Shown: piece by piece, positions 1,834 through 40,097 of the stretch
Position numbering within the stretch: the first letter of the stretch is position 1
Layout of the letters: each line of letters starts with the position of its first letter
Assembly: GCA_964416025.1 (NCBI GenBank)
Contig: CAYQCJ010000002.1
Coordinates: forward strand, 3,025-67,024
DNA: 64,000 bases
Direction: 5' to 3'
Source: an uncultured Staphylococcaceae bacterium
Lineage (GTDB): Bacteria; Bacillota_I; Bacilli_A; RFN20; CAG-826
Translations under genes and position numbers: made by a program
The notes under the pieces: model-generated
Databases searched by the model: none
What the model was told of the DNA's origin: nothing
What the model saw: the letters and a program-made list of their open reading frames with translations, nothing else

Positions 1834-2559
1834 TTACTTACTTTTGTGGAAAGTAACTTCCCCAGTTTTTAGAGACTTAATTTCGCCATCTTTAGTCTTA
1901 CAAATTAGGTGGCCATTTTGATCAATATCAGTGACTAATAAAGTCTCTTCTTTATCAATAACCCTTGCAAAGACCTCTTTATTTTTTAAATAGTTGTGTT
2001 TTTGAACATATTCAATGAAAGAATTGTCGCCTTTTTTAAAAGCATTTAAACATTCAAAGAAAAGGTTAACAATTTGATGAGTTATCATTCTTACATCGAG
2101 TTCAATCTTGCAGTTCATAAACATCGAGGTAGCGTTTGGTAAATCGCTAGGAAATTCCTTTTGATTTACATTTAATCCAATTCCTACAACTAAAGCGACT
2201 AATTCATTTATAGAAACACTCTCTAAAAGGATTCCACAAACTTTTTTGTCACCAATATAAACATCATTTGGCCATTTAATTGAAGCATTAAATCCCATGG
2301 TTTCTAAATAGGAACAAACAACCGCTCCAGTCATCAATGATAATAATCCGAAATTATCGAAACAAAATTTATCTTTTAAAAGGATAGAAAATGTCGCACC
2401 ATCGCCTTTATTAGCGACAAAAGAACGATCGAAGCGACCCTTGCCTTTTTCTTGAAAAAGAGCACTACAAACGGCTTCAGAATGAAGCTCATTGTAGTGT
2501 TCTTTAAGATATTTATTTGTTGAATCGATACTATCGAACTCTAAAAATTCTCTTTCCAT
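1834..2559 (-). CDS. birA: biotin--protein ligase, class I (no N-terminal HTH domain)
   Basis: GKGRFDRSF and KWPNDVYIGDKKVCGILLE motifs. It is only ~241 aa from ATG 2557-2559, and the first codon of the track ORF at 2589 is TTG. It lies next to bioY. Confidence 0.85.
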   Translation of the reverse strand: MEREFLEFDSIDSTNKYLKEHYNELHSEAVCSALFQEKGKGRFDRSFVANKGDGATFSILLKDKFCFDNFGLLSLMTGAVVCSYLETMGFNASIKWPNDVYIGDKKVCGILLESVSINELVALVVGIGLNVNQKEFPSDLPNATSMFMNCKIELDVRMITHQIVNLFFECLNAFKKGDNSFIEYVQKHNYLKNKEVFARVIDKEETLLVTDIDQNGHLICKTKDGEIKSLKTGEVTFHKSK

Positions 2560-3106
2560 AATAACTATATACGCAGGATTTACAAACAATCGCTACGCAA
2601 ATCTTCAATAAATCGAATGGAATATAAGGAACAATGAAGATTGATAATAAATAAGCAAAACTATAATCTAAACCTTTCATTGTATTTAAAATTAAATATC
2701 CATGTAAGAAACCAAAAGCATAAACAACTAATAAACAAGCTACACAAGCTAAAGCATCAACAACATAATTTGTTTGTATCTTGTTATCTAATTTTTTAAC
2801 GGCCCACATAGCGATAAGTCCAGGGATAAATCCATAAACAAATCCGAATGTTGGAGCAAAAACATATGCGAATCCCCCTCCAAATCCACTGAAGACTGGA
2901 ATTCCAATAAGTCCCATTACAATATACAAGACAACGATAATTAAACCTTCTTTTAAACTTAAAGTTAAACCAATAATAAAGATAACTAAAAGCTGAAGAG
3001 TGAATTTAATTAAACCGGTTTGTAAAGTCATAAAGGAACCGACAATCAACAAGGCTAAAAATATGGCGATTCTTGAAATCGAATCAATGACTTTTTTTGT
3101 TTTCAT
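2531..3106 (-). CDS. bioY: biotin transporter BioY
   Basis: A six-TM protein of ~190 aa with a BioY-type GGGFAYVFAPTFGFVYGFIPG segment, sited between oadB and birA. Confidence 0.85.
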   Translation of the reverse strand: MKTKKVIDSISRIAIFLALLIVGSFMTLQTGLIKFTLQLLVIFIIGLTLSLKEGLIIVVLYIVMGLIGIPVFSGFGGGFAYVFAPTFGFVYGFIPGLIAMWAVKKLDNKIQTNYVVDALACVACLLVVYAFGFLHGYLILNTMKGLDYSFAYLLSIFIVPYIPFDLLKICVAIVCKSCVYSYYGKRIFRVR

Positions 3107-4350: not shown

Positions 4351-4716
4351 TTAACCTAAAATTACTAATGAATCACCAGTATTAACATTGGCGCCTTTAG
4401 CAACATTAATAGCTTTAACTGTTCCATCAACAGGAGCAACAACTTCGTTTTCAAGCTTCATAGCTTCGATAACAACAAGTGTTTGTCCTTTTTTAACGCT
4501 ATCACCAACAGCGACAGCAACTTTGATAACACCACCACCAATTGGAGCTTTGACAGCTCTTTCTCCTCCACTTATAGTGGCTGGAGCAGCGACAGGCTTG
4601 CTCTCAACTTTAGCGGCAGGAGCAGCAGCAGGAGCAGCGACAGCAGCGCCTTCCTCAACTGGCTCTAATTCAACTTCATAAACTTTTCCATTAACAGTAA
4701 TACGGTACTTTTTCAT
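4351..4716 (-). CDS. stand-alone biotin carboxyl carrier subunit of the decarboxylase
   Basis: Ala/Pro linker followed by a biotinyl domain with the EAMKLEN attachment motif. Confidence 0.9.
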   Translation of the reverse strand: MKKYRITVNGKVYEVELEPVEEGAAVAAPAAAPAAKVESKPVAAPATISGGERAVKAPIGGGVIKVAVAVGDSVKKGQTLVVIEAMKLENEVVAPVDGTVKAINVAKGANVNTGDSLVILG

Positions 4717-6472: not shown

Positions 6473-6619
6473 AATTTTTACTCCCTTTTAAACCACTTTT
6501 GAAGAACTCTAGATTAAATAAAAGCACAATAAACAAATTAGACATAACGTTATAGTTTGTTGATTAGTTTTTAGGATCTAGATTTACCTTCTTTCAATTA
6601 TGATTTGTTAACGGTTTCC

Positions 6620-8629: not shown

Positions 8630-9913
8630 TTAATTATTCTCTTTATTTAAATTTTCTTTAGCAATTGCTAACATCAATTTGATTCTATTTTCTTGGTTAA
8701 CCTTTGGAGCACCTGCATCATAATCAACAGCTACGATATTTGCGCCAGTTAACTCAACAACTTTTCTGATCATGCCTTTTCCAGCAATATGGTTTGGTAA
8801 GCATCCGAATGGTTGAGTACAAACAATGTTTTTATAACCATTATGGGCTAATTCCATCATTTCAGCCGTTAATAACCAGCCTTCTCCCATTTTGTCACCA
8901 TAACCAATTACACCTTTAACAAGGCCTTTTAATTCATAATAATGCGTTGGAGCCGTATATTCTTTATGAATCGAAATTGAATCAATAAGCATATCCTCAA
9001 CTTTTAAACAGTAGTTTAATAAGGCTTTACAAACCCATTTTTTGAAAATGTTTCCACCATATAATTTAATATCTTCAAGTCGATTATCAATTTTAAAATT
9101 AACGAAACTCAATAAACCACCAAGATAAACTTCGCAATCTTCTCCATGTAAGAAATCTTCAAGCGAATTATTTCCTAAAGCAGCATATTTAACGTAAATT
9201 TCTCCAACAATTCCGACCTTGACTTTCTTGACGCTTCTATCGCAAGGAATCTTACTAAAATCATCACTAATTTTATAAAGGTTTTTCTTAATATCTTTAA
9301 ACTTATAATCTTTCCCGTGATTCAATAAATCGACTATATGATCAGTCCGTTTTTTCAATAACCCCTGCGTATCCCCCTTATTTATTTCGTAAGGTTCAGT
9401 TTGGTTCTTTAAATACATTAAAGAATCTCCATAAATTACACCAGCGACAAGTCTTCTAATCATCTTTAAAGAAATATGAAAACCAGGATTCTTTTCAAGA
9501 CCAGATAAGTTGAGTGAAAGAACAGGAACATAATCTAAATCAGCTTTCTTCAAGCCTTTTCTTAAAAGATGAATGTAGTTACTTGCTCTACAACCACCAC
9601 CAGTTTGGCTAATCATTAACGCAACTTTATGAGTGTCATATTTTCCGCTTTGAAGAGCATGAATCAATTGTCCACAACTTAAAATTGCAGGATAACAAGT
9701 ATCGTTATGAATATATTTAAGTCCAGTTTGAGCAATTTCAGGTCCTTTAGTCGTTAATAATTCAGCATGATATCCTAAATTATTAAAAATTGGTTGAAGG
9801 ATTCTAAAATGAGTTTCCATCATCATAGGAAAAAGAATTGTATAGTTCTTTTTCATGTATTTAGAAAATAATAATCTACCAGTTTTTTTATCGTATTTTA
9901 ATTCACTATTCAT
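8630..9913 (-). CDS. 2-hydroxyacyl-CoA dehydratase-like / activase-associated protein, substrate unknown
   Basis: It is paired with, and overlaps by 8 nt, the upstream double-ATPase gene. I chose the start at the internal ATG (MNSELKY) because the track ORF begins at a GTG inside the upstream gene. Confidence 0.6.
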   Translation of the reverse strand: MNSELKYDKKTGRLLFSKYMKKNYTILFPMMMETHFRILQPIFNNLGYHAELLTTKGPEIAQTGLKYIHNDTCYPAILSCGQLIHALQSGKYDTHKVALMISQTGGGCRASNYIHLLRKGLKKADLDYVPVLSLNLSGLEKNPGFHISLKMIRRLVAGVIYGDSLMYLKNQTEPYEINKGDTQGLLKKRTDHIVDLLNHGKDYKFKDIKKNLYKISDDFSKIPCDRSVKKVKVGIVGEIYVKYAALGNNSLEDFLHGEDCEVYLGGLLSFVNFKIDNRLEDIKLYGGNIFKKWVCKALLNYCLKVEDMLIDSISIHKEYTAPTHYYELKGLVKGVIGYGDKMGEGWLLTAEMMELAHNGYKNIVCTQPFGCLPNHIAGKGMIRKVVELTGANIVAVDYDAGAPKVNQENRIKLMLAIAKENLNKENN

Positions 9914-12860
9914 GGATTTTTTTCTCCTTTTGCTCTTGAAGGGCAGCAAGAAGCGATCTAATTCTAATTTTAACAGCACCTAAATTAGTGATCTCATCTA
10001 TTTTAATTAAGGTATAAATTTTCTTTTCTCTTTCAAGGATGTCACGAACTTCATCAGTCGTAATAGCATCGACTCCACATCCGAAAGAAACTAATTGAAC
10101 AAGATTCATATCGTCAGTATGAGCAACATAATTTGCAGCTTGATAAAGTCTAGCATGATATGTCCATTGATTTAAAACATGTGTAACCACCGCTTTTTTC
10201 TCTTTTTTAGCAATAACATCATTGGTAACAATTGCAACATCAAAAGTAGAAATCATCTTATCGATACCATGGTTAATTTCTGGATCAAGATGATATGGTC
10301 TTCCAGCAAGAACAATAATGTCTTTGTGTTCTTTTCTGGCTAAAGCGATAATTTCATTGCCTTTTAAATCTACTTTTTCTTCATAATCATCATAAGCTTT
10401 ATAAGCGAGTTTAACTGCATGACGAACTTCTTTTAAAGTTATATCGCTAAAATATTGTTTTAAAAGCGTATGAAATTTAATTGGGAATTCCCTCTTATGA
10501 TCGATACCAACATAATCCTTAATAAAAGTAACGTTGTTTCTTTTAAGATCTTTCATATTTGCATCGATAACTTCAGGATAATATGCGACTACTGGGCAGT
10601 TATAGTGATTACTGCCTTTATCTTCATTAATGTTATAAGACATACAAGGATAGAAAATATATTTAATTCCTTCATCAATTAAATACTTGATATGCCCATG
10701 AATAATTTTTGCTGGGAAACAAACCGTATCGCTTGGAATGGTTGATTGACCAGCTAAGTATAATTTTCTATTTGAAAATGGTGAACGAACGACCTCAAAA
10801 CCTAAATCAGTTAAAAGTGTGTTCCAGAAAGGGAATAATTCCCACATATTTAAACCTAATGGAATTCCAATTTTACCACGTTTTCCAGGTTTAGAAACAT
10901 AACTAGCAAGTAAATTTTGTTTGAACTCAACCATGTTAAGTTCACTCTTGCTTGTCTTTTTTGTTATTGGTTTTTCACATCTATTTCCACCAATAAATGA
11001 TCTATTTCCACTAAATTTATTAATAGTTAATCTACAGTGATTTGGACACATTTGACATGTTGTAACAAGAATTGAATGTTGAAATTCGCTCAATTCTTTC
11101 ATATTTAAAATTGTTGATTTCTCGCTTGTATGCATAGTTTTAGCATATAAAGCAGCACCATAAGCGCCCATTAAACCAGCAATATTTGGTCTAATGACAT
11201 TTGTATTCATTTCAATTTCAAAAGCTCTTAAAACGGCATCATTTAAAAATGTTCCGCCTTGAACAACAATCTTTTTGCCTAATTCACTTGGTGAACCAGC
11301 ACGTATGACTTTATATAAAGCATTTTTTACAACTGAAAGCGATAAACCAGCCGCAATATCTTCAATAGTTGCACCATCTTTTTGTGCTTGTTTAACCGCC
11401 GAATTCATAAAGACAGTACATCTTGAACCTAAATTAACAGGCTTTTTGGCAAATAAAGCAAGTTTAGCAAAATCTTCTATCTTATATCCTAAAGCACTTG
11501 CAAATGTTTGAAGGAACGATCCACAACCACTTGAGCAAGCTTCGTTTAAGAAAATATTTTCAATTGCGCCTTTTCTAATTTTAAAACATTTAATATCTTG
11601 ACCACCAATATCGATAACAAACTCGACATCAGGCATAAATTTTTTAGCAGCAATAAAATGTGCAATTGTTTCAACGATTCCAAAATCAACTAAGAAAGCA
11701 TTTTTAACAATATCTTCACCATAACCAGTGACTGCACTACTTACAATTTTGATATTTGGTTTTAAAGTGTAAATTTCTTCTAAAACTTTTTTAATCAAAG
11801 GAACTGGGTTTCCAGCATTTGACATATATCTTGAAAATCTTAAATTGTTATCTTTATCAATTAACACAAGTTTAACTGTTGTTGAACCAGCATCAATTCC
11901 TAAAAAGAATTCATCATTATAATTGTCAAAAGATAATGTTTTTACCAATTCTTTATCGTGTCTGTCTTTAAAAGCTTGATAATCACTTTCATCTATAAAT
12001 AATGGTTCTCTATAATCAAAATTTGAATTATTAGTGTAATTTCTTACTTTATTTAATAAATCATCTAACGAAACTTCTTTATCGGTGCAAAAAGCAGCAC
12101 CCAAAGCAACATAATATAAAGAGTTATTTGGACAAACACCAGTAACTTTCAATGTATCATCAAAGGCTTTTCTTAATTCACTAATAAAAGTTAATGGACC
12201 ACCAAGATACAAAACATTACCAGTTATTTCTCTTCCTTGAGCAAGTCCAGCAACTGTTTGATTACAAACTGCATAAAAAATTGAGGCACTAATATCAGAT
12301 TTTCTTGCCCCTTGATTTAATAATGGTTGAATATCACTTTTTGCAAAGACTCCGCAACGAGAAGCAATTGTATAAATCTTTTCTTTTTCTTTAGCAAGAT
12401 TATTCATTTCTTCGATTGAAACATTTAATAAACTTGCCATTTGGTCGATAAAAGCACCGGTTCCACCAGCACATGTACCATTCATTCTAACTTCAACACC
12501 GTTCTCTAAAAAGAGAATTTTAGCATCTTCACCACCAAGTTCGATAATGACGCTAGTATTTGGGTTTAATTTGTTGGCAGCAACTCTAGTTGCATAAACT
12601 TCTTGAATAAATGGGAAACCACAAGATTCCGCAATACCCATACCAGCACTACCACTTAAAGCTAATTTAACATTATCAACACCTTTTAATGGTCCGTCTT
12701 TTAATCTTTTCAAAACTTCTTCAATTTTTTCGCTAATCTTCGAAAAATGTCTCTCATATAAAGAAAAAAGAATTTCATTTTTCTCATTAATTACAACGCA
12801 TTTTATAGTTGTTGAACCAATATCAAGTCCAACTCTTAAATTTAAATTTTCCATAAACAT
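9906..12860 (-). CDS. double BcrAD/BadFG-type ATPase (putative CoA-substrate-specific enzyme activase) with long C-terminal extension
   Basis: Two actin-fold ATPase N-termini (VGLDIGSTTIKCVVI and LGIDAGSTTVKLVLI), plus a Cys cluster TTCQMCPNHC. Confidence 0.75.
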   Translation of the reverse strand: MFMENLNLRVGLDIGSTTIKCVVINEKNEILFSLYERHFSKISEKIEEVLKRLKDGPLKGVDNVKLALSGSAGMGIAESCGFPFIQEVYATRVAANKLNPNTSVIIELGGEDAKILFLENGVEVRMNGTCAGGTGAFIDQMASLLNVSIEEMNNLAKEKEKIYTIASRCGVFAKSDIQPLLNQGARKSDISASIFYAVCNQTVAGLAQGREITGNVLYLGGPLTFISELRKAFDDTLKVTGVCPNNSLYYVALGAAFCTDKEVSLDDLLNKVRNYTNNSNFDYREPLFIDESDYQAFKDRHDKELVKTLSFDNYNDEFFLGIDAGSTTVKLVLIDKDNNLRFSRYMSNAGNPVPLIKKVLEEIYTLKPNIKIVSSAVTGYGEDIVKNAFLVDFGIVETIAHFIAAKKFMPDVEFVIDIGGQDIKCFKIRKGAIENIFLNEACSSGCGSFLQTFASALGYKIEDFAKLALFAKKPVNLGSRCTVFMNSAVKQAQKDGATIEDIAAGLSLSVVKNALYKVIRAGSPSELGKKIVVQGGTFLNDAVLRAFEIEMNTNVIRPNIAGLMGAYGAALYAKTMHTSEKSTILNMKELSEFQHSILVTTCQMCPNHCRLTINKFSGNRSFIGGNRCEKPITKKTSKSELNMVEFKQNLLASYVSKPGKRGKIGIPLGLNMWELFPFWNTLLTDLGFEVVRSPFSNRKLYLAGQSTIPSDTVCFPAKIIHGHIKYLIDEGIKYIFYPCMSYNINEDKGSNHYNCPVVAYYPEVIDANMKDLKRNNVTFIKDYVGIDHKREFPIKFHTLLKQYFSDITLKEVRHAVKLAYKAYDDYEEKVDLKGNEIIALARKEHKDIIVLAGRPYHLDPEINHGIDKMISTFDVAIVTNDVIAKKEKKAVVTHVLNQWTYHARLYQAANYVAHTDDMNLVQLVSFGCGVDAITTDEVRDILEREKKIYTLIKIDEITNLGAVKIRIRSLLAALQEQKEKKIHE

Positions 12861-26132: not shown

Positions 26133-26354
26133 AGGTAAATGCTAAAACAAAAAACCAGAAAAGGCAAGTTAATGAAATTTATACAAATTAAGAAAAGGTT
26201 GATTAAATAGTTTCGTTTGTAACAAAAAAACGGTTTGAACGAAATATAAATCGTAATTTTTACAATTTTTTAAAAAAATTTAAAAAAATATATATTAAAT
26301 AAGAATATATTATAAATAATAACATACATTAATAATATATTGGAGGTTTTTATA

Positions 26355-29300
26355 ATGAGACAAAGACGCATAAACGTATCAATAGTTACCGTATTAACTG
26401 CCGCAGCAATTGGTGCACTATTTATTACTTTTTCAAAAAATTTAATTTCGAAATACACTATCACTTTTGATACTGATGGCGGAACTAATATCGATTCCAT
26501 TCTTGGAGTTACTGGAACTTTAGTAAAAACTCCTGCTGATCCAACAAAAGAAGGCTACACATTTACTGGTTGGGTAGATAAAAATAATAAAACATACACT
26601 TTTGATACAATTCCTAATGAAAACATTACTGTTACTGCCACTTGGAAAATTAATAAATATACAATTTCTTTTGATTCAAAAGGCGGAACAAGTGTTAGCT
26701 CAATCACTCAAGATTATGCGACCACAGTTTCTGCTCCAACAGATCCTACATATTTAGGTTATACCTTTGATTTTTGGTCTTTAAAAGGCGAAACCACCCC
26801 TTACACTTTTAAAACAATGCCAAGTGAAAATATCACTTTAAATGCTAATTGGACTATCAATAGACACGACGTAACATTTATTCTTGATGGAGAAATCTAT
26901 GGATCATCCGTTAGATATAGTTTTAATGAAAGTATCGTTTTACCAACCATTACTAAAACTGGTTACACCTATGATTTATGGTACACTGATGCCGCTTATA
27001 CTAATAAGATTTCCACTGCTACCATGCAAAATGAAGACATCACTTTATATGGTAGAAGTTCGATAAATAGCTACGATGTTACCTATCACATTCCTAATAA
27101 AAACGATGTGATTAAGACTTTTAAATACAAAGAAAACGTCACTTTGACATTTGATTTTAACGAGGGTTATTCTTTCTCAGGATGGTTCGATAATTCAACC
27201 TACACCGGAACTAAATTGTCTTCTTACAAAATGCCTGCTTCAAACGTCGATTTATATGGAAAATATAACGCCAACAATTACACTATCACTTTAAATAGCG
27301 ATGGTAGCGTCTATAAAACCATCAATCAAGAATATAAATCGACAATCGAAAGTGTCGTAAATCCAACTAAAACCGGATATACATTCGCTTATTGGTACAC
27401 TACCGATATTAATACAAGTGTCGATGTACCTACAACTATGCCTTTAGGTGGATTAACTTTGAATGCCAAATTTACAGTCAATTCTCATAATTTGAATTAC
27501 TATTATGGCTCATCACTTCTTAATACAACTTCAGTAGATTATGGAGAAGTTGTTAGCTCACTTTATACACCTGATAATATTCTTGGAAAGACTTTTGCTG
27601 GTTGGTATAGCGATGCAAGTTTTGCTAACGAAGTTACCTCTATAACCATGCAAGATAGCGACTATAATCTTTACGCTAAATTTACTGATAACGTTTATAC
27701 AGTTTCTTTTGTTAACTATGATGACACTATTTTATCAACAATAAACAATCTTAGTTATGGCGACACAATTACTTATACTGGCGCAACACCAACTAGACCA
27801 AGTACCATTGGAAGCAACTATACATTCACTGGTTGGGACAATGATATTACTAGTGAAATTACTGGTGATACCACATTTAAAGCCCAATATAGCGAAGAAA
27901 TTCGTCAATATTCACTTTCATTTATGGTTGATGGAGTTTTATATAAGAAGATAATTAACGATTATCAATCTCCAATTGTTGATCCAATTGAACCTACCAA
28001 GACTGGTTATACTTTCGCTTACTGGTATTTAGGAAGCGACGACTCAATAGCAGCCACTTTACCTCCTTCAATGCCTGGAGAAAATAGAACTTACACCGCT
28101 AAATGGACTCCAATTTCCTATAGCGTTAAATTTAATAATTATGATGGTAGCGAATTACAAAGCGGAGTTGCTGATTACGATACTTACGCTACTTATAGTG
28201 GCGAAACACCAACTAAACCAGCTGATGCTGAATATACTTATACCTTTAGTGGATGGGACAATGATCCAACAGCTACTAAGATTACTGGAAATACCGTATT
28301 CACTGCTCAATTTAGTTCAGTAAAGAATCAATATTCATTTACCTTCGTTTTAGATAATGGCGATAGTGACGTTATTTACACAAGAGACTATGGAACAGCC
28401 ACTCCAACCATCACTTCACCAACAAAAACTGGTTACACATTTGCTTATTGGTATACCTCAGATCCAGCAACTTCAGTTCCTGTTCCAGGAACTATCACAA
28501 GTAATGTTACATTTACTGCTAAATGGACTATCAACTCTCACTCAGTTAATTATCATAATGGTTCAGTTTTAGCTCAAGCTTCTAAAACATGCGACTACGG
28601 TGCCAATGTTGATTTAACATTAGATCCATTAGTTACTGGTAAAACACTTGAAGGTTGGTATACCGATTCTTCATTATCAGCTGCAAGTAAAGTTTCCGCT
28701 CCATTAGTTATGGGCGATGCTGATTTAGATCTTTATGGTAAATTTACTACTAATTCTTATTCCTTAGTTTATAAATATAAAGATGCTCTTGGAACACCTC
28801 AAACACTGTCTAGCACTACCGCACTTTATGACTCAAGTGTTGATTTATCTGAGCAACCTGTCACTGGTTATGTTTTCCACGGTTGGTTTCTTGAAGAAGG
28901 TTTAGTTCATGCGGTTTCTACTTTAGCAATGCCAGCAAGCGATACCGTTCTTTATGGAAAATACGTCAAACAATACACAGTATTATTCAAGAACGGAACA
29001 GACACTCTTGAAACAGATACTGTTGAATCCGGAAACACCACAACTTATGATGGTGCTACTCCAACCAAAGCAAGCGACGCTCAATACACTTATACATTTA
29101 CTGGCTGGGATTCGGATCCATCAACCACAATAATTACGGCTGATACAACATTTACTGCTCAATTCAGTTCGACATTAAGAAGTTACACCATTACATTTGC
29201 TAATGCTAATAATGGCGAAAGCGTCACTAAAGATGTTGATTATGGAACCACTCCAACTTACACAGGAACTCCAACAAAAGCCACTTCTGGCGCTTATTCT

Positions 29301-30173
29301 TATACATTTAGTGGTTGGGATAAGACTTTAGCATCAGTTACTGGTGCCGAAACTTATACCGCTCAATTCACTGAAACTGAAGATAAGAGTTATGGTTTAA
29401 GTTATACAGCTATCGATGCTGATACTTGCTTTGTTTCGGCTTTTGATAAATCACATCCAAATGTTGAAATTCCAACTCAAATTGATGCTAATGGAGATGG
29501 CGACTTAGAAACCGTCATTGGAATCGGAGATAAAACATCTTCTGCTGGTGTATTTGCAAATAATTCGTCATTAACCTCAATAAAACTACCATCCACATTG
29601 CAATATATTGCCAGTGCTTCCTTTTCTTCAACAACAGCATTACCCAGTATTGAATTCCCTGATAGTTTACAATATGTAGGAGATTATGCTTTCTACGGAA
29701 CACATATCACCGAAATGAATTTTAAATCAAATGTCCAATATGTCGGTGGTTATGTGATAGCAGGAAGCCTAGTTGAAAAATTAACATTTGCTGATGGTGC
29801 GTTAGCGACTGAATCAGGAATTACAGACGGAGCTTTTAACTCTTCATCTTCGTTAAAATACGTAACTTTACCAAATACTTTAGCAAAATTAAGCAAAGGA
29901 ATGTTTCAAGCATGCATAGTTATGGAAAGTATAATAATTCCTAAGAGCACAAACATATCAACAGACACCAGTCAAAATTATTTTACAGGCTGCAAATTAT
30001 TGAATTATGTTTACATTGAATCAACTACATATACAGAAGCCCAAATTAATTCGTTAAAGGGCGGAATTCCTTCAACAACTACTCTTTATTATTATTCAGC
30101 CACCGAAAAAACGGATGGAAACTATTGGCATTACGATACAGTGACTGGTCTTCCAATAATTTGGGGCGCTTAA
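26355..30173 (+). CDS. large surface protein: Listeria-Bacteroides-type repeats plus C-terminal BspA-type LRR domain (paralog 1)
   Basis: GGAGG then ATG 26355, followed by a signal-anchor. By eye there are 14 GYTFxGW-type repeat motifs with a period of about 70-75 aa. The last ~280 aa show the LP..L..I...AF LRR pattern. Confidence 0.85.
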   Translation: MRQRRINVSIVTVLTAAAIGALFITFSKNLISKYTITFDTDGGTNIDSILGVTGTLVKTPADPTKEGYTFTGWVDKNNKTYTFDTIPNENITVTATWKINKYTISFDSKGGTSVSSITQDYATTVSAPTDPTYLGYTFDFWSLKGETTPYTFKTMPSENITLNANWTINRHDVTFILDGEIYGSSVRYSFNESIVLPTITKTGYTYDLWYTDAAYTNKISTATMQNEDITLYGRSSINSYDVTYHIPNKNDVIKTFKYKENVTLTFDFNEGYSFSGWFDNSTYTGTKLSSYKMPASNVDLYGKYNANNYTITLNSDGSVYKTINQEYKSTIESVVNPTKTGYTFAYWYTTDINTSVDVPTTMPLGGLTLNAKFTVNSHNLNYYYGSSLLNTTSVDYGEVVSSLYTPDNILGKTFAGWYSDASFANEVTSITMQDSDYNLYAKFTDNVYTVSFVNYDDTILSTINNLSYGDTITYTGATPTRPSTIGSNYTFTGWDNDITSEITGDTTFKAQYSEEIRQYSLSFMVDGVLYKKIINDYQSPIVDPIEPTKTGYTFAYWYLGSDDSIAATLPPSMPGENRTYTAKWTPISYSVKFNNYDGSELQSGVADYDTYATYSGETPTKPADAEYTYTFSGWDNDPTATKITGNTVFTAQFSSVKNQYSFTFVLDNGDSDVIYTRDYGTATPTITSPTKTGYTFAYWYTSDPATSVPVPGTITSNVTFTAKWTINSHSVNYHNGSVLAQASKTCDYGANVDLTLDPLVTGKTLEGWYTDSSLSAASKVSAPLVMGDADLDLYGKFTTNSYSLVYKYKDALGTPQTLSSTTALYDSSVDLSEQPVTGYVFHGWFLEEGLVHAVSTLAMPASDTVLYGKYVKQYTVLFKNGTDTLETDTVESGNTTTYDGATPTKASDAQYTYTFTGWDSDPSTTIITADTTFTAQFSSTLRSYTITFANANNGESVTKDVDYGTTPTYTGTPTKATSGAYSYTFSGWDKTLASVTGAETYTAQFTETEDKSYGLSYTAIDADTCFVSAFDKSHPNVEIPTQIDANGDGDLETVIGIGDKTSSAGVFANNSSLTSIKLPSTLQYIASASFSSTTALPSIEFPDSLQYVGDYAFYGTHITEMNFKSNVQYVGGYVIAGSLVEKLTFADGALATESGITDGAFNSSSSLKYVTLPNTLAKLSKGMFQACIVMESIIIPKSTNISTDTSQNYFTGCKLLNYVYIESTTYTEAQINSLKGGIPSTTTLYYYSATEKTDGNYWHYDTVTGLPIIWGA

Positions 30174-30561: not shown

Positions 30562-33500
30562 ATGAAACAAAGAAAAATTAATGTTGTAATTACTACAGTA
30601 TTAGCTGCTGCTGGCGTTTCTTCTTTATTTATCGTTTCTGGAAAAGACTTAATTGCGAAATATAATATTACATTTGATAGTCAAGACGGAACAAATGTTG
30701 ATTCTATTGTTGGTGTAACTGGTTCGCTTGTAAGTGCTCCGGCCAATCCAACAAAAGAAGGTTATACTTTTACCGGTTGGGTTGATGAAAATAATAAACC
30801 ATTCTCTTTTGATACAATGCCTGGAAAAGACACCACTATCACCGCAACTTGGAAAATTAACCAATACACCATTTCTTTTGATTCTAAAGGTGGAAGTTCT
30901 GTTAGTTCGATCACTCAAGACTATGGATCGACTATAAATCCACCAGCATCTCCAACATTTACTGGTTACACTTTTAATTATTGGTTCTTGGACGGAGAAA
31001 CTAAGCCTTATACTTTTTCTACAATGCCTGCTAAAAACATCACTCTTTCGGCTGATTGGACAATCAATAGACATAATGTTAAATTTATCGTTGATGGCGA
31101 AGAATATCGTACTGATCGATATAATTTTAACGAATCTATTGTTTTGCCTACATTAACAAAAACTGGTTATACATATGATTTATGGTACACAGACAGCACC
31201 TTTATTACTAAGATTTCTGCTGCTACAATGCAAAATCAAGACATTACTTTGTATGGTAGAAGTTTAATAAATAGCTATGATGTCACTTATCATATTCCTG
31301 GAAAAGAAGATAAAGTCCAAAGTTATGAATATAATTCAACAGTAGATTTGACCTTTGATTTTAATCAAGGATACACTTTTAACGGTTGGTTTACGACCCA
31401 AGACTATAGCGGCTCAAAATTATCAAATTATAAGATGCCTGCTAATAATATCAATTTATATGGAAAATATATTCCAAACACTTATTCGATGACTTTTATT
31501 AGTGATGGCAACACCTATAAAACCATTGAAAAATCATATAAAGAAACAATCGGAACAGTTGTTGACCCAATCAAGGTTGGCTATACTTTTGATTATTGGT
31601 ATACAAACGACATCAATACCCAAGTTGATATTCCTACAACTATGCCTTTAGGCGGATTAACTTTAACTGCTAAATACACAATTCATTCTCATGCTCTCAA
31701 TTATTATGTTGATGGGGAGATTGCTTATACTCAAAATTTGGATTATAACGAAACTCTTGATGCTTTATATACTCCTAATTATCAAGTAGGCAAAACATTT
31801 GTCGGTTGGTATAAAGAAGATGGTTTATTAAATGAAACAACTTCAATTACAATGGTAGATGAAGACATTAATCTTTATGCGAAATTTACAGATAATAAAT
31901 ATATTGTAAAATTTCTAAATTATAATAATACCGAAATATCAACCATCAATGATGTTGCCTACGGAAGTACAGTAACTTTCACCGGCTCCACTCCTACTAA
32001 ACCAAGTGATACTGGAAATGACTATACCTTTAGTGGATGGGACGAAGATATTACTTCTCCAATTTTCGGAAATACTACTTTCATTGCTCAATTTAACTCT
32101 TCAATACGTCAATATACAATGAACTTTGTTGTTGACGGAACAACATACAAAACAATTATTAATGACTACCAATCCCCAATTGTTGATCCAACTACACCAA
32201 CAAAGACTGGTTATACATTTGCTTATTGGTATCTTGGTGATGATGATTCAATTGCCGCTACTCTTCCTGTCACAATGCCAGGAGAAAACAGAACTTACAC
32301 CGCAAAATGGAATGCAAATAAGCATTCAGTCACCTATATTGGTGATACCACAACCACATTAGAAAATGTTGAATATGGTACATCTATAAATCTCGACCCT
32401 TTAACAAAAACTGGTTACACCTTTGATGGCTGGTATAAAGAAGCCGCTTATACAAACAAGGTTACTAGTATGACTATGCCAGACAATAATATAACCCTAT
32501 ATGCAAAATTTACAATTAATTCTCACTCTTTAATATATAAATATAAAGATATAAACGGAACTTTACAAACCATCGAAACAACCAATTTAAATTACAATGC
32601 TTCAATCGATTTAACTGAAAAATCTGTTACTGGATATTCGTTTAAAGGATGGTATACCGATGAAGCCTTAACTCAAAATGTGACTACTATGAATATGCCA
32701 GATTTAAACACAATTCTTTACGGAAAATATGTCAAACAATACACTGTTACGTTTAATAATGGCACCGAAACCTTAGCAACCGAAACAGTTGATTCTGGTG
32801 AATTAGCAACTTACACCGGAGCAACTCCAAGCAAAGCAAGCACAACTGAATTAGTATATACTTTTGATGGATGGGATAAAGACCTTAATACTTTACAAAT
32901 TACCGCCGATACAGTATTTACAGCTAAATTCAGTTCATCAGTAAGAAAATATACTATAACTTTTGCAAATGCAAATAATGGTGAAAATGTCACAAAAGAT
33001 GTCCCATACGGAACTCTTCCAACATATGATGGTGTTCCTACAAAAGCAAATTCAGGCGCTACTACTTATACATTTACCGGTTGGGACAAAACAATAGTAA
33101 ATGTTGCTGGAGAAGAAACTTATACAGCGCAATTTAGCGAATCAGAAGATAAGAGTTATGGTCTTAGATACATTGCTATCGATGCTGATACTTGTTACGT
33201 TTATAGTTTTGATAAATCTCACACTAATGTCGTTATTCCTTCAATGTTTGATGTTGACTACGATGGCGATAAAGAAACTGTTGTCAGTCTCGGCAAAGAG
33301 GGAATAAGCGGTTCCCCTATATTTAGTAATTCGAGCGTTACCTCGGTTTCTCTCCCTAATACCATAAAATATATTAGTGATTGGACTTTTGGTAACACAA
33401 CTTCTTTAACTACGCTTCAACTTCCTGACAATTTAGAATATGTTGGCGATAAAGCATTCTACGGAACAGGAATTAAATCATTAGAATTCAAAAAGAAACT

Positions 33501-33945
33501 TCAATTTATTGGTAAATATGTTTTTGATAATAGCAGTATAGAAACCCTCACATTTGAAGATGGAGCGTTAGCAAGTTCATCTGGTATTTCAGAATATGCT
33601 TTTTACTATACTAATCATTTAACAAAAGTAGTTTTACCAAATACCTTTGCTTGTTTAAGTGATCGTATATTCGGTAGTTGCAAAGCATTAACATCAATAA
33701 TAATTCCAGCAATTACGGATATAAATAATACCGATGGATATCAAGGATCGTATTTTAGTTCTTGTTCTGCTTTAACTCACATCTACATTGAATCCACTAC
33801 TTACACTTCAACTCAAATTACAAACTTGTTATATAATTCTAATTCTATTACAAAACTTTATTATTATTCAGCCACCGAAAAAACTGATGGAAACTATTGG
33901 CATTACGATACATTGACTGGTCTTCCAGTAGTCTGGGGCGCTTAA
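30562..33945 (+). CDS. large surface protein: Listeria-Bacteroides-type repeats plus C-terminal BspA-type LRR domain (paralog 2)
   Basis: Same architecture as paralog 1, with 12 repeat motifs by eye. Its N- and C-termini are collinear with paralog 1. Confidence 0.85.
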   Translation: MKQRKINVVITTVLAAAGVSSLFIVSGKDLIAKYNITFDSQDGTNVDSIVGVTGSLVSAPANPTKEGYTFTGWVDENNKPFSFDTMPGKDTTITATWKINQYTISFDSKGGSSVSSITQDYGSTINPPASPTFTGYTFNYWFLDGETKPYTFSTMPAKNITLSADWTINRHNVKFIVDGEEYRTDRYNFNESIVLPTLTKTGYTYDLWYTDSTFITKISAATMQNQDITLYGRSLINSYDVTYHIPGKEDKVQSYEYNSTVDLTFDFNQGYTFNGWFTTQDYSGSKLSNYKMPANNINLYGKYIPNTYSMTFISDGNTYKTIEKSYKETIGTVVDPIKVGYTFDYWYTNDINTQVDIPTTMPLGGLTLTAKYTIHSHALNYYVDGEIAYTQNLDYNETLDALYTPNYQVGKTFVGWYKEDGLLNETTSITMVDEDINLYAKFTDNKYIVKFLNYNNTEISTINDVAYGSTVTFTGSTPTKPSDTGNDYTFSGWDEDITSPIFGNTTFIAQFNSSIRQYTMNFVVDGTTYKTIINDYQSPIVDPTTPTKTGYTFAYWYLGDDDSIAATLPVTMPGENRTYTAKWNANKHSVTYIGDTTTTLENVEYGTSINLDPLTKTGYTFDGWYKEAAYTNKVTSMTMPDNNITLYAKFTINSHSLIYKYKDINGTLQTIETTNLNYNASIDLTEKSVTGYSFKGWYTDEALTQNVTTMNMPDLNTILYGKYVKQYTVTFNNGTETLATETVDSGELATYTGATPSKASTTELVYTFDGWDKDLNTLQITADTVFTAKFSSSVRKYTITFANANNGENVTKDVPYGTLPTYDGVPTKANSGATTYTFTGWDKTIVNVAGEETYTAQFSESEDKSYGLRYIAIDADTCYVYSFDKSHTNVVIPSMFDVDYDGDKETVVSLGKEGISGSPIFSNSSVTSVSLPNTIKYISDWTFGNTTSLTTLQLPDNLEYVGDKAFYGTGIKSLEFKKKLQFIGKYVFDNSSIETLTFEDGALASSSGISEYAFYYTNHLTKVVLPNTFACLSDRIFGSCKALTSIIIPAITDINNTDGYQGSYFSSCSALTHIYIESTTYTSTQITNLLYNSNSITKLYYYSATEKTDGNYWHYDTLTGLPVVWGA

Positions 33946-35612: not shown

Positions 35613-35698
35613 TGGTGCGAGTAGGGGGACTTGAACCCCCATGCTGTGAGGCATAAGATTCTAAGTCTTACGTGTATACCAGTTTCACCATACTCGCA
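35613..35698 (-). tRNA. tRNA-Leu (anticodon UAG), long variable arm, encoded CCA
   Basis: Hand-folded: acceptor TGCGAGT/ACTCGCA, anticodon stem TAAGA/TCTTA with loop CTTAGAA, T-arm GGGGG-TTCAAGT-CCCCC. Confidence 0.9.
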
Positions 35699-36010: not shown

Positions 36011-38569
36011 ATGAAAAGTTTTATCAAATTATTGGCTACTGGCTTGATTGGCACAATAGCTTTAGGTGGTTCTGCTAGCACTATTTATTTCATGGTAAAT
36101 AATGGTTCTAATTCAGACAACAACCATACATCACTATTACCTGGAGGAACCGAACTCACAGATGAACAAAAAACTGTCAGTGCAATTAAGGACAATCTCT
36201 TTAATTATCTTTCAGCTTCAAATTTAAAATTTAACGATTTACTCTTAAACGTTGAGGGCTTAGGAGCTACTAATAGTGAAGCTTTACAACTCAATTACAA
36301 AGGATCAATGGATTACAAAGTTTTTATGACCACTCATAAAAACAACCTTACTAGCGATGATGTTGCCGCTAAATTTAATGGCGATATTAATGTTAAATAT
36401 CTCGATAATACCACCAATGCTAAATACACAACTAAGCTTGATGAGACAATCGGATTTCAATCTCAAGGTACTGGAAAATTATTTTTAGATTGGAAACCAA
36501 GCGATCAAGAAGGTGTTGAAGCTACTAAATATTCAATCAGTGGAAAAGTCATCGATGATGTTTTAGATTTTCTTCCTACAATTCAAACATTAACCGGTGT
36601 TGATTTAAGTAGTGTCCACGATTATTACAGTTTAATTAAAAATATTGATATAACCAATTTATTACCAATGGCTATTGATCTTGTTGGTTCTTTAAGTGAT
36701 TCTTCAGATCTTAATCAAACTCCAGTCGATGGAATTTACTCATTTAATATTGTCGTTCCTGCTTCTTTATTAAAAGATGCTGGAATTGAACAAGATTTAC
36801 ATATCGTATTTAAATGCGATGACAAGGGTCTTTTAACTGCTATCGAACTTTATGAAATTGATATCAGTGGCATTAAGATTTCTTTAACAAGCAATATCTT
36901 AATGGATATTACTGATTCCGGTTATGTTAGTGATGTAAATGAAGACGAATACACAAACAATCTCGATTGCACCACTAACGCTTTAACTACAGTTGCTAGT
37001 TTAATTGATGAAAAGAAATTTGATACTAATTTATCAATCTCTTTAAAAGAAAATGTTAATGGCGTAAATTCCGCCACCAGAACATTTGATGGATTCTTTA
37101 AAGGTGATTTATCAAGTGCTAAGGCAATTAATGATGGGGCAATTTATGATATTGGAATTACTCAAAATCAAACATTTAATAGTTCTGTAAATGTCCGTTA
37201 TGCTAACAACAAAACTTATTTCAAGGTTGGTTCTAATTTAGCTAAAGGATTTATTGCCGATTCAACAATTGATGATTTAACTAAAAATATTACATCAACA
37301 ATGTTTAAAGATAACGCTCCTAGCGCTGATGAAGCTTTAAATATGGTCGCAACAATTTTAGGCGATTCACCAATTTATGAAATTATGGACGGAAATTGGG
37401 GAGCTTATAAGAAATTCATTAGAAATTTAACAATCGATAATGAAGTTATGACTCTTACAATTAACGCTAAAGCTTTTGGTAGTAAATTAGTTGATCAAGA
37501 TTTCACAATCAACATCGATTTAAAAGATGGAAAATTAAATGGTTTATCAATCAAAGATTTACCAGTTACTCAAAAAACTAAAACTGACGGAAAAGTTTAT
37601 GTTACTTCAATCGATTTTGCCGTTAATCTTGTAGATTTTGGCACACATGTCAATGATGTTACTGAAACTTATGGCGATTTTGGTCAATATGCTAATTTTG
37701 AAATTGCTAATCCACTTTATAACACCATTTATAAGATTGTTGATTCAAAAACAGTTGGTGCCAATTATTCAATCAGTTACACCAAAGAAGATGCTACAAA
37801 AGAAATGTTCACTATTGATGGAACAATTGATGGCGATATTAATTCTATGGATGAAATCGACATTTCAAGCATGAGTACTGTTGAAAATGCAGTCAATGCA
37901 ATCAATGGCAAAAATTTAGGTTTATACAATATTACTGCAGGCGGAAATATTAACGGAATTACTCACAATTTAAGTGCAACTTACCAAGATCAAGGTTTAT
38001 ATCTCGATTACTGGGGAGCAAACAAAGAATACACCGAATCAAAAATGAGTTTAACTCAAGGAAAATTCTTCGATGTATTTAACTTAGTTTATGGAATGAT
38101 TGGTGGCTCCGCTTCACAAGAAGTCAGTATGTCATTTGATAGCATGACTTCAACTTTAGATAATTTACTTGATATTACTGATGGAAAACTTTGGAGTATT
38201 CTTCAAGGCGATATGATGTCTGATTTAGATAAATATATCAGTGTAAAGAGTGATGGCAGCGCTAATAATTTAGTTAATGTTGCAATCGACACTACATTAT
38301 TTGGCGGAAATTATGGTTCAATAAATCTTGTTTTAGATTCAAATAACGATTTATTATCAATTCACGCTAATTATAAAACAGCTGGATATGGAACTGTTGA
38401 TTTTAGTTTCAACTTTAGAGACTATCAAGATCCTACAATTGCTAGTGACGATATCACTAACAACTATAAAGTCATGGATAATACAGTAGATGCCATCATT
38501 AGTTTAGTGAGCGGTTCGTCCTTAAGTTCGATGGAGGTTTCCGGCTCCTTAGCCGGTCCCAGGCGATAA
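36011..38569 (+). CDS. large N-terminally anchored secreted protein, N-terminal 852 codons (5-prime half of a split or recoded gene)
   Basis: GAAGGA RBS then ATG 36011 (MKSFIKLLATGLIGTIALGG signal-anchor). The product is Asn/Asp/Ser/Thr-rich with no domain I recognise. It ends at a TAA inside the GC-rich island. Confidence 0.7.
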   Translation: MKSFIKLLATGLIGTIALGGSASTIYFMVNNGSNSDNNHTSLLPGGTELTDEQKTVSAIKDNLFNYLSASNLKFNDLLLNVEGLGATNSEALQLNYKGSMDYKVFMTTHKNNLTSDDVAAKFNGDINVKYLDNTTNAKYTTKLDETIGFQSQGTGKLFLDWKPSDQEGVEATKYSISGKVIDDVLDFLPTIQTLTGVDLSSVHDYYSLIKNIDITNLLPMAIDLVGSLSDSSDLNQTPVDGIYSFNIVVPASLLKDAGIEQDLHIVFKCDDKGLLTAIELYEIDISGIKISLTSNILMDITDSGYVSDVNEDEYTNNLDCTTNALTTVASLIDEKKFDTNLSISLKENVNGVNSATRTFDGFFKGDLSSAKAINDGAIYDIGITQNQTFNSSVNVRYANNKTYFKVGSNLAKGFIADSTIDDLTKNITSTMFKDNAPSADEALNMVATILGDSPIYEIMDGNWGAYKKFIRNLTIDNEVMTLTINAKAFGSKLVDQDFTINIDLKDGKLNGLSIKDLPVTQKTKTDGKVYVTSIDFAVNLVDFGTHVNDVTETYGDFGQYANFEIANPLYNTIYKIVDSKTVGANYSISYTKEDATKEMFTIDGTIDGDINSMDEIDISSMSTVENAVNAINGKNLGLYNITAGGNINGITHNLSATYQDQGLYLDYWGANKEYTESKMSLTQGKFFDVFNLVYGMIGGSASQEVSMSFDSMTSTLDNLLDITDGKLWSILQGDMMSDLDKYISVKSDGSANNLVNVAIDTTLFGGNYGSINLVLDSNNDLLSIHANYKTAGYGTVDFSFNFRDYQDPTIASDDITNNYKVMDNTVDAIISLVSGSSLSSMEVSGSLAGPRR

Positions 38570-38645
38570 TCCGAGGCAACTAACCCTCGAAGGGTGGGCT
38601 AATTTACAATTAAATCCACTCATGCCAGAAGGCTCAATGTCTGGC
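38541..38645 (+). other. GC-rich hairpin-dense island at the frame break (unclassified: candidate recoding signal, mini-insertion or small RNA)
   Basis: Hand count gives about 63% G+C over 38541-38600 against an AT-rich background. Hairpins are at 38541-38556, 38572-38589 (nested within 38558-38598) and 38624-38645. Confidence 0.5.
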
Positions 38646-40097
38646 CTCTTTAATCTTGCTGATTCTACGGCTACTGAAGGAACAAAACTAGAATTTGATC
38701 TCAATACAGACTCTAGTGTATATATCGAATATAACGATAAACTGAGAGTTTTATCGACAAAAACAGCACTTATTGAATCTTTAAAGGAGGTTACCGAAAT
38801 AGATAGCGGTAATCTCCTTTACGTTTATATTTCTGAATACATTCCAATAATTCAAACTTTAATTGGCGAAAAAGTTGATAGCACAAACTCAATTGAAGCT
38901 AATTATGATAACGTCATGAAATGCTTAACCAGTTTAGGAGATGCTATCAAAATCGAAGCAACCGCAAGTTATGTAATTGATTTAAGCATCGATTTTACCA
39001 AATTAAATCTTGATATCATGAATACCGATCTTTCATCGATGGGCACTTTAAACTGCACTATTAACTTAAATCCAAGTGACAATAAATATCTTGAGTTAAC
39101 TCTTAATGACATTACTTATGATGGCTGCACTGGAGATATTACTACTTCTCTCACTACATATAGCGATAGAAGCAGTGAAATCTCTTTTAGTGATAGCGTC
39201 GGACAAGTCGATTTATCTACACTTCCAATTTTAGTTAAAGCTGGAATCGCTACTACTGAGAAAAAAGCATATAAGATGAGCGGTAATTTATCCGCCAAAA
39301 CCACCGGTGTCGTCTCATGGTTTATGAGTGTCGATATTAACGCTACTGTCGATGTTTATTTATCGATCGGCGACGAATTAGATGAAAACAATTTATATAC
39401 AATTAAAGGTTATATAATTATAAATAATAATAAAGAAGGCGATTGGTCAACAAATTTCTGGAGCACTTCAAGAAGTTATGATTCAAGAATTACAAAATAT
39501 ATCATCAAAGATACTGATGCATATATTTATCAAAAGAAGCATTATTATGAACAATCTCGTGCTACTGCTTTCAATAGTTGGAAAGACAAAACAAATACTA
39601 CCACTTACTCTTATTTTAAAACCACTCAACAAAGCATGTTAAATGATGTCTTATATTATCTCGTCGATTTCACCTTAGGAGCTCCCGATCTTTATTCACA
39701 AATTGTCGATGCAATGGGCGGAAGCATTAGTTTAGATTTCTTCGATATGTTTAAATACTTTAAATTTATTGAAGATGGAAAATATCAAGTATACTTAAAA
39801 ATTCTAAGCTTGATGAATGTTTATGCTGATATTTATTATGATCAAACAACTTTCTTATTAGATAGGCTTAATGCCTACACTAATTTCGATATCGTCATTG
39901 GTTCTGTCTCATTCAATCTTGATGTTAGTAATCAAAACATTGCCGGAGTAGGAGATATTCAAACGCAAATTGATGAATACGATACCTTCAACACTAGCTG
40001 GTTAAGTCACAACGAAACAAATGGCTTACAATATCGTCCAACTAAAGACGATACTGGAAGCGAATATATCTACACTTCTACCACTCAATTATTCTAA
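38622..40097 (+). CDS. C-terminal 491 codons of the same large protein (its frame is open from 38553, +1 relative to the upstream half)
   Basis: It has the same composition as the upstream half and no signal peptide of its own. A weak GAAGG precedes the second ATG at 38637. Confidence 0.65.
   Translation: MPEGSMSGLFNLADSTATEGTKLEFDLNTDSSVYIEYNDKLRVLSTKTALIESLKEVTEIDSGNLLYVYISEYIPIIQTLIGEKVDSTNSIEANYDNVMKCLTSLGDAIKIEATASYVIDLSIDFTKLNLDIMNTDLSSMGTLNCTINLNPSDNKYLELTLNDITYDGCTGDITTSLTTYSDRSSEISFSDSVGQVDLSTLPILVKAGIATTEKKAYKMSGNLSAKTTGVVSWFMSVDINATVDVYLSIGDELDENNLYTIKGYIIINNNKEGDWSTNFWSTSRSYDSRITKYIIKDTDAYIYQKKHYYEQSRATAFNSWKDKTNTTTYSYFKTTQQSMLNDVLYYLVDFTLGAPDLYSQIVDAMGGSISLDFFDMFKYFKFIEDGKYQVYLKILSLMNVYADIYYDQTTFLLDRLNAYTNFDIVIGSVSFNLDVSNQNIAGVGDIQTQIDEYDTFNTSWLSHNETNGLQYRPTKDDTGSEYIYTSTTQLF

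Follow-up and report, generated by a model that had tools for sequence, protein, structure and literature searches.

A conserved CCC-AGG-C site and a probable programmed +1 frameshift in a split gene of AT-rich uncultured Bacilli

The stretch of DNA analyzed here (the window; 64,000 nucleotides (nt), contig CAYQCJ010000002.1 of an uncultured Staphylococcaceae bacterium) is an AT-rich bacterial chromosome segment with a guanine plus cytosine (G+C) content of 31.3%, which carries housekeeping genes, transfer RNA (tRNA) genes and surface proteins with Listeria/Bacteroides repeats. On its + strand, two long open reading frames (ORFs) follow each other with a frame difference of one nucleotide. ORF1, which we take as the zero frame, extends from ATG 36011 to TAA 38567-38569 (36011-38569; 852 amino acids (aa)); its N-terminus forms a hydrophobic membrane anchor or signal sequence, and its unshifted product ends in ..SLAGPRR. 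The +1 frame is open from 38553 to 40097 and overlaps ORF1 by 17 nt; its portion beyond the junction discussed below, ORF2, covers 38562-40097 (511 codons and a stop). NCBI and the gene callers annotate two proteins, P0001 (852 aa) and P0008 (486 aa), with the NCBI start of the second at ATG 38637 (P numbers denote homologous proteins and, below, L numbers homologous loci). We propose that ORF1 and ORF2 are one gene, expressed as a single polypeptide by way of a natural, conserved programmed +1 frameshift of the Ty1 type at CCC-AGG-C (38558-38564), a reading to which we assign a probability of about 0.8.

The overlap of the two frames contains, in the zero frame, the codons CCC AGG CGA TAA (38558-38569). 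A first-pass annotation, made from the letters of the window, had pointed to this sequence, to the TAA at 38567-38569, to the opening of the +1 frame at 38553 and to the 17-nt overlap, and all were confirmed. The heptamer CCC AGG C (38558-38564) comprises CCC at 38558-38560, the P-site Pro codon (codon 850 of ORF1), and AGG at 38561-38563, the A-site Arg codon. After a slip of one base, the P-site tRNA would lie on CCA (38559-38561) with GGC (38562-38564) as the next codon, A 38561 being the skipped base. The zero-frame stop TAA (38567-38569), two codons after the P-site codon, would end translation by unshifted ribosomes. Both codons of the heptamer are rare in this genome, as had been suspected for AGG: CCC makes up 11 of the 505 Pro codons of the window (2%; CCG, 5 of 505) and AGG 21 of its 464 Arg codons (4.5%), and the shift site is the sole in-frame CCN-AGG among 18,713 window codons. 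AGG is also rare in L001, L007, L011, L016 and L023. When codon usage was scored in a sliding frame of 15 codons, the site came out as the gene's rarest-codon cluster in five of the eight sequences tested (window, L009, L004, L007 and L012), and ranked 3rd in L001, 9th in L016 and 22nd in L011.

In the mechanism that we propose, the rare AGG codon in the A site would cause a pause during which tRNA-Pro would re-pair one base forward, from CCC to CCA. Gly-tRNA would then read GGC, and translation in the +1 frame down to 40097 would yield a membrane-anchored protein of 1,361 residues (850 + 511) with the junction ..SLAGP-GDNPRQLTLEGW.., that is, ..EVSGSLAGP followed by GDNPRQLTLEGWAN.., from which the predicted tryptic junction peptide is VMDNTVDAIISLVSGSSLSSMEVSGSLAGPGDNPR. 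Ribosomes staying in the zero frame would read AGG-CGA, halt at TAA 38567 and release the 852-residue product. The GC-rich island in which the site lies would thus act as a recoding cassette: besides the heptamer with its rare codons and the stop, it contains a cluster of rare codons rich in G+C, and the local hairpins of this cluster may adjust the efficiency of the shift.

We compared the locus with its relatives by a protein search with the hypothetical fusion, after which the contigs of the matches and one genome per species were scanned for ORF2. The fusion search returned only ORF1-sized proteins of 840-866 aa, even at 41-47% identity (the ORF1 homologues P0001-P0007, of 840-866 aa, are 41-100% identical). 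An ORF2 homologue follows ORF1 in every case scanned, and it is always in the +1 frame in the frameshifted lineages, namely the window clade (window, L009, L010, L018), L001, L004, L007/L012/L022, L011/L017/L020, L015/L016 and L023. The split is common to six deep lineages with a between-clade identity of 34-54%, and a metagenome scan added two further loci, both already represented. Junctions are identical in independent assemblies (L001/2/3, L004/5/6, L007/8/13 and L023/24), and synteny is kept in most lineages, with a tRNA-Leu(UAG) gene upstream and a metallophosphoesterase gene downstream; the downstream neighbor differs in L023. Together, the conserved +1 split, the identical independent junctions and the synteny exclude an assembly error and a recent pseudogene, two outcomes that the first-pass annotation had allowed for. 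A single extra nucleotide, relative to the in-frame locus L014 described below, does separate the two states, as would be expected from a fixed frameshift mutation that ribosomes do not compensate, in a decaying pseudogene, or from an assembly indel. Such an origin is nevertheless highly improbable, since both halves are open and conserved down to 34-47% identity in six lineages that keep the synteny, and the site itself is the most conserved stretch. With more than ten independent assemblies at hand, A 38561 is unlikely to be an artefact of assembly.

Several members of the family are encoded by a single ORF: L014/P0015 (1,375 aa), P0016 (1,350 aa), P0021 (1,343 aa) and the more distant P0029 (1,331 aa) and P0030 (1,318 aa). 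At the junction, the L014 protein (..VEGSLTSTGDKPRNLGLNGWMN..) aligns without gaps with the +1 product of the window. At the nucleotide level, L014 reads ..TCC ACT GGC GAC AAA CCC AGA AAC.. where the window reads ..GGT CCC A GGC GAT AAT CCG AGG CAA.., so that the window has exactly one extra base, A 38561.

This colinearity bears on the suggestion, also made in the first-pass annotation, that the island is an inserted GC-rich or palindromic element, or a gap that ribosomes bypass. The junction would then arise from an 88-nt skip between two copies of GGCTC (..EVSGSMSGLF..), or from a 13-nt hop from CCC 38558 to CCG 38571 (..SLAGPRQLTLEGW..). The GGCTC copies are indeed present at both ends (38543 and 38631), matched Pro codons stand 13 nt apart (19 nt in L007), and the composition looks foreign; the stop shortly after the candidate take-off codon, the matched downstream Pro codon and the local hairpins are features shared with the bypass of phage T4 gene 60. 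The island was, however, expected to be missing from orthologues, whereas homologous sequence occupies the same site in all of them, including homologous coding sequence in those at 40% identity, and a BLAST search for further copies of the island within the 64-kb window found none. The 88-nt skip would moreover delete G[DN].., PR. and GW, residues that every relative keeps and that the in-frame members translate (G-D-K-P-R-N..G-W). As for the hop, matched Pro codons occur in three clades, but the residues between them, G[DN][NDE], are conserved, and a Pro codon for landing is missing from the L011/15/16/17 and L023 lineages. Unlike in T4 gene 60, the "gap" of the window is conserved coding sequence that in-frame relatives translate, and a shift of 1 nt suffices to join the frames. 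Neither an insertion nor a bypass is at all likely.

The start of the +1 frame was then considered. No ATG, GTG or TTG occurs in this frame before 38622 in the window (+55 nt in the window clade), nor before +250 to +286 nt in L007/12/22, and the start-less stretch is conserved coding sequence with GW and YNDK motifs. Measured in five clades, the conserved Gly-Trp codons lie 37, 37, 43, 46 and 43 nt from the shift site, each value being 1 mod 3, which means that indels there have occurred in whole codons only. These observations weigh on the possibility of two ordinary adjacent genes, in which translation of ORF2 would begin at ATG 38622 or 38637, either on its own or through termination-reinitiation, and the +1 relation would be incidental. 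Such an arrangement agrees with the two annotated proteins of 852 and 486 aa and with the +1-frame ATG that L001, L004 and L011 each have close to the junction; in addition, a Shine-Dalgarno (SD)-like GAAGG precedes ATG 38637, and had been put forward earlier as an independent start (GAAGG-N4-ATG). The motif exists, but it is not conserved as a start, ATG 38637 being ATT in L010 and L018, and L007/12/22 are start-less for 250-286 nt. Two genes would also leave unexplained that the sequence before the first ATG is conserved as coding sequence with indels in multiples of three only, that the +1 relation is found in every lineage, and that five lineages have one continuous protein over the junction. 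A true coupled gene pair in the same window, by comparison, shows a clear SD sequence and ATG (AAGGAG-N10-ATG). We regard two separately started genes as improbable.

We return to the proposed frameshift and to the sequence of its site. The consensus U CC[C/G] AGG C[A/G]A U[A/G]A is kept at the nucleotide level in all frameshifted lineages but L004, while the flanking codons vary. CC[C/G] AGG C is found in the window, L009/10/18, L001, L007/12/22, L011/17/20, L015/16 and L023, and the stop is at the same position, C[AG]A T[AG]A, in every CCN-AGG lineage. Within the window clade, no 45-nt stretch of the gene is more conserved than 38533-38577, which ties for first place with 98% of its positions invariant versus a mean of 76%. 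At the same alignment column, L004 (37% G+C) reads UCG UUU CGC AAC UGA. In a small sample of 75 Arg codons from this lineage, AGG is the second commonest (18/75) and CGC among the rarest (6/75). As UUU can re-pair perfectly on UUC and CGC is rare, L004 obeys the same rule, a slippery codon in the P site and a locally rare Arg codon after it, without having the same sequence, and the site appears, from its codons, to have turned over there along with the change in codon usage.

The same codons could in principle serve a +1 shift at the stop codon itself, in the manner of prfB or antizyme (CGA-UAA-U in the window, CAA-UGA-N in relatives), with the junction ..GPRR-NPRQ... As every lineage, L004 (AAC UGA C) included, has a stop at this place, a single rule would do for all, and slow termination is the classic trigger of +1 shifts in bacteria (PMC5009743). 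However, re-pairing in the +1 frame is impossible for CGA, CAA and AAC, the stop lies two codons after CCC and not in the A site directly 3' of the slippery codon, there is no SD-like element 3 nt upstream (the nearby GGAGG is 19 nt upstream in the linear sequence), and the conserved rare CCC/CCG and AGG codons would be left unaccounted for. Substitutions, in addition, are conservative in the +1 frame (D/N, N/D/E) and not in the zero frame (R/Q), and the +1-frame G-[D/N] that precedes the stop matches the G-D of L014 (GGC GAT versus GGC GAC). A shift on the stop codon is thus unlikely. From the conservation of G-[D/N]-[N/D/E] in the +1 frame and its match to the translated G-D of L014, we infer, the same nucleotides serving both frames, that the shift takes place on CCN-AGG rather than on the stop.

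A further way to cross the junction would be a dedicated tRNA with an expanded anticodon loop that decodes the quadruplet CCCA (Pro) or AGGC (Gly). AGGC is invariant in all CCN lineages, and the mitochondrial cox1 of Perkinsus, in which AGG and CCC codons are associated with shifts and AGG-Y is read as Gly after the +1 step, offers a precedent, an expanded-loop quadruplet tRNA having been proposed as one possibility for these mitochondria (PMC5009743). Decoding in Perkinsus is organelle-wide and concerns every such codon, whereas the window has one site and reads other AGG and CCC codons normally, in frame and without a shift. With no unusual tRNA in the window or the loci, a different quadruplet in L004 and ordinary tRNAs sufficing in E. 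coli, we give this explanation very little credit.

The composition of the junction is unusual. The 60 nt at 38541-38600 have a G+C content of 63.3%, in agreement with the earlier hand count of about 63%, versus 32.6% for the gene and 31.3% for the window (z-score = 4.7); just 0.09% of all stretches of 60 nt attain 60%. Apart from tRNAs, no place near the gene is richer in G+C, and elsewhere in the window peaks of at least 55% occur only in a tRNA cluster and in an Ala/Pro linker (4544-4680). The four helices listed in the first-pass annotation were all found on the + strand, CCGGCT/AGCCGG (38541-46/38551-56), CGAGG/CCTCG (38572-76/38585-89), CCCA/TGGG (38558-61/38595-98) and GCCAGA/TCTGGC (38624-29/38640-45). 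Its description of the island as hairpin-dense stands for these helices but is weaker for the folding as a whole, which is barely better than that of shuffled sequences: the + strand of 38520-38660 has a minimum free energy of -43.1 kcal/mol (z = -1.84), with 6 of 200 dinucleotide shuffles folding as well, and the minus strand gives z = -0.27. Rfam 15 gave no match at gathering thresholds over the whole window and none at E-values up to 10 over 38300-38900 on both strands.

Stimulatory RNA structure was sought by folding each lineage and by ranking 50-nt windows along each gene. Local structures by the shift site fall within the top 1-2% of the 50-nt windows of the gene, and they are mutually non-homologous. 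The side on which they lie differs as well, upstream in the window clade and L001, and downstream (5-8 nt after the A-site codon) in L004, L007/12 and at 38572-89 of the window. Upstream of the site, the 6-bp hairpin CCGGCU-CCUU-AGCCGG (38541-38556) stops one nucleotide short of the P-site codon. L009, L010 and L018 share it with a single change in the loop, and the other clades lack it. Among 1,345 windows ranked by stability, the 50 nt that precede the site come 18th. In L001, the corresponding position is taken by an unrelated hairpin that extends up to the P-site codon. The 38541-38556 hairpin may be a 5' stimulator specific to the window clade. An SD-like GGAGG (38534-38538), also present in L009/10/18 and L004 and absent from L001, L007 and L011, lies 19 nt upstream of the CCC codon, a spacing that would drop to 3 nt if the hairpin were looped out; any role of this element in the shift is speculative.

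Downstream of the site, the hairpin CGAGG-N8-CCUCG (38572-38589) starts 8 nt after the A-site codon and is found in this genome only, being missing from the 84-89% identical relatives L009, L010 and L018; L001, L004 and L007/12 have non-homologous hairpins at a matching downstream spacing. In L004/L005/L006, the site (~6515-6535) is followed by two strong hairpins, CAUCGUC/GACGAUG and GUCCAUC/GAUGGGC. Further downstream in the window, a helix GGGUGGG/UCCACUC (38592-38621), formed by the Gly-Trp and Asn-Pro-Leu codons, is also possible in L009 and L010, with A-U in place of one G-U pair, and the arms of the hairpin GCCAGA/UCUGGC (38624-38645), which spans ATG 38637, are conserved within the clade. 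Overall, the hairpins do not form a conserved RNA element but may be lineage-specific modulators; according to the E. coli data presented below, none is required.

We reconstructed the full-length proteins and placed them in a neighbor-joining tree with P0021 as the root. The frameshifted group, in which L004 is basal, does not include the in-frame P0016 and P0021. The in-frame L014 is sister to the frameshifted L001 (94 of 100 bootstraps) and nested among frameshifted lineages. With in-frame proteins as outgroups and L014 nested, the simplest history suggested by the tree is one old gain of the frameshift followed by one later loss in L014.

Several points weigh against the proposed frameshift. 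The support for a frameshift comes throughout from comparative sequence analysis, and, since AGG C[AG]A U[AG]A serves both frames, conservation alone cannot separate a shift on CCN from one on the stop codon. Re-pairing of the P-site tRNA is straightforward from CCC to CCA (window clade, L011, L015/16, L023) and from UUU to UUC (L004) but not from CCG to CGA (L001, L007/12/22); judged by its codons, the CCG P-site would re-pair poorly, simple slippage fails to explain these lineages, and they may need an out-of-frame A-site binding like that of Ty3. Three clades have a second CC[G/C]-AGG-[C/G]AA in the +1 frame, 13-19 nt farther downstream; were this motif to promote shifting to the same degree, ribosomes would enter a frame with an immediate stop and the product would be aborted. 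No flanking RNA structure is conserved across clades, and none was found in the L011/15/16/17 clade. Finally, support for the deep branches of the tree is only moderate (45-87%).

In the window, this second motif is CCG AGG CAA (38571-38579; Pro-Arg-Gln in the +1 frame), made of rare codons and forming the 5' arm of the downstream hairpin. Its counterparts are CCC AGG GAA in L001 and an identical 12-mer, AAUCCGAGGCAA, in L007/12/22, and it is homologous to CCC AGA AAC (Pro-Arg) of L014. In its three clades, it may be kept as the 5' arm of the downstream hairpin. L007, L012 and L022 carry AAUCCGAGGCAA twice, 19 nt apart (6588-6625 in L007), first in the zero frame before UGA and then in the +1 frame, and the second copy sits in a stable hairpin, AGGCCAAUCCG..CGGUUGGCUU. 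We considered a tandem duplication as the origin of the two CCN-AGG copies and rejected it, as the shifted products equal the in-frame L014 and P0016 in SL-to-GW length.

The closest precedent is found in E. coli, where CCC-AGG-C gives 5% of +1 frameshifting, up to ~66% when tRNA-Arg(CCU) is limiting, the product having been identified by liquid chromatography-tandem mass spectrometry (PMC7022156). There, a pause at AGG lets tRNA-Pro slip from CCC to CCA, and no flanking elements are needed (Huseby et al, 2020; PMC7022156). This suppression of an insertion in rpoB shares with the window the identical heptamer and, as proposed for the window, the mechanism and a protein restored over a 1-nt insertion (PMC7022156). 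The rpoB case differs in being a spontaneous laboratory or clinical mutation and not an evolved feature. The site of the window is conserved over deep natural lineages of AT-rich uncultured Bacilli, in a GC-rich cassette of rare codons with a fixed stop after it. With the conserved heptamer and frame relation, the codon rarity and the 1-nt difference from L014, the E. coli precedent supports the interpretation favored at first reading, a Ty1-like +1 slip on CCC-AGG-C with tRNA-Pro re-pairing on CCA.

Other +1 systems resemble the site in part. In yeast, the TYA-TYB heptamer of Ty1 is CUU-AGG-C, with GGC as the incoming codon (PMC5009743). The window shares with it the hungry AGG in the A site and GGC as the next codon and, as proposed, the one-base-forward re-pairing and the pair of short and long products, but Ty1 is a eukaryotic retrotransposon with a Leu CUU codon in the P site, whereas the window has a bacterial chromosomal gene with Pro CCC/CCG. 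The Listeria phages PSA, A118 and A500 shift to +1 at CCC-UGA and ACA-CCC-(UCC) (PMC5009743); like the arrangement proposed here, they combine a low-GC Firmicute host and a rare slippery CCC P-site codon with a C-terminally extended structural protein. Their tsh site differs in having a stop in the A site and a downstream pseudoknot, in a phage gene, compared with a rare sense codon in a cellular gene here. The release factor 2 gene, prfB (CUU-UGA-C), provides a conserved bacterial chromosomal +1 frameshift in which, as proposed here, the P-site tRNA slips during an A-site pause. In prfB, the A site holds a stop codon, and an SD-like element stands 3 nt upstream; the stop of the window comes one codon later, with no SD-like element at 3 nt in the linear sequence.

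The nature of the protein was addressed with both halves of the split gene. Pfam, NCBIfam, PHROGs and PDB sequences gave no match to either half, and AlphaFold models from shallow alignments were poor (predicted local distance difference test of 55 for ORF1 and 34 for ORF2). The low-confidence ORF1 model (36011-38566) consists of repeated beta-sheet-plus-helix modules with a weak and partial likeness to the LolA/LprG half-barrel, a lipid- or lipoprotein-binding fold. Foldseek with this model returned only weak partial LolA/LprG-like matches of low template-modeling score, and we thus assigned no function; the model hints at most at a protein that could handle lipids or lipoproteins at the envelope. 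The label "surface protein" that the gene had received is plausible but unproven.

Around the gene, the tRNA-Leu(UAG) gene upstream is divergent (35613-35697, minus strand) and also present in almost every lineage (L001, L004, L007, L009-L012, L016-L018, L020, L022). Downstream, on the opposite strand, follow a ~300-aa protein of no assigned function and the metallophosphoesterase, in deeply conserved synteny. Just upstream, on the + strand, lie two tandem paralogous giant surface proteins of 1,277 aa (26340-30173) and 1,127 aa (30562-33945), each with 9-10 Listeria-Bacteroides (Flg_new) repeats and a BspA-type leucine-rich repeat region. Inside the 1,127-aa gene, ARAGORN reports an 86-nt tRNA-Thr(GGT) (32121-32206, minus strand; anticodon at position 37), which the Rfam tRNA model does not find and which is thus probably a false positive.

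Two other places in the window deserve mention. A second +1-related ORF pair, the coupled pair cited above, lies on the minus strand at 8630-9979 and 9906-12860 with a 74-nt ORF overlap, and encodes a coenzyme A-enzyme activase (BcrAD_BadFG + DUF2229) and then a DUF2229-like protein; we tried it as a recoding site and rejected it, given its normal AAGGAG-N10-ATG start by the upstream stop (9906-9913). The G+C peak at 4544-4680 (minus strand, ORF 4351-4716; up to 63% G+C) corresponds to the Ala/Pro-rich linker (..AAVAAPAAAPAAKVESKPVAAPA..) in a biotin-carrier protein of 121 aa (Pfam Biotin_lipoyl) and is therefore ordinary coding sequence; BioY and a biotin ligase are encoded near it, at 1834-3106.

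To our knowledge, few natural +1 programmed frameshifts exist in bacterial chromosomal genes; prfB dominates among them, and most depend on a pause at a stop codon. In limited literature searches, we found neither this gene family nor a natural CCC-AGG-C site of bacteria described before. The family would thus be a conserved cellular case of +1 frameshifting at a sense codon, the hungry AGG, using the heptamer of Huseby et al, who proposed such rescue as a route to programmed frameshifting (PMC7022156). For annotation, the two "hypothetical proteins" should become one gene with a ribosomal-slippage label in these metagenome-assembled genomes. With its in-frame outgroups, its frameshifted lineages, one reversion and one lineage whose site changed alongside codon usage, the family would offer a natural series along that route. 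Going further, and here we are tentative, the frameshift might conceivably be a regulated switch that tracks charged tRNA-Arg for AGG, or the modification of tRNA-Pro, and sets the ratio of the 852-aa to the 1,361-aa product, with the hairpins as interchangeable, repeatedly evolved stimulators around one ancient site. If this were true, the family would be a natural record of a 1-nt insertion turning into programmed recoding, from its gain, through turnover to UUU-CGC-A when AGG was no longer rare, to its loss in L014.

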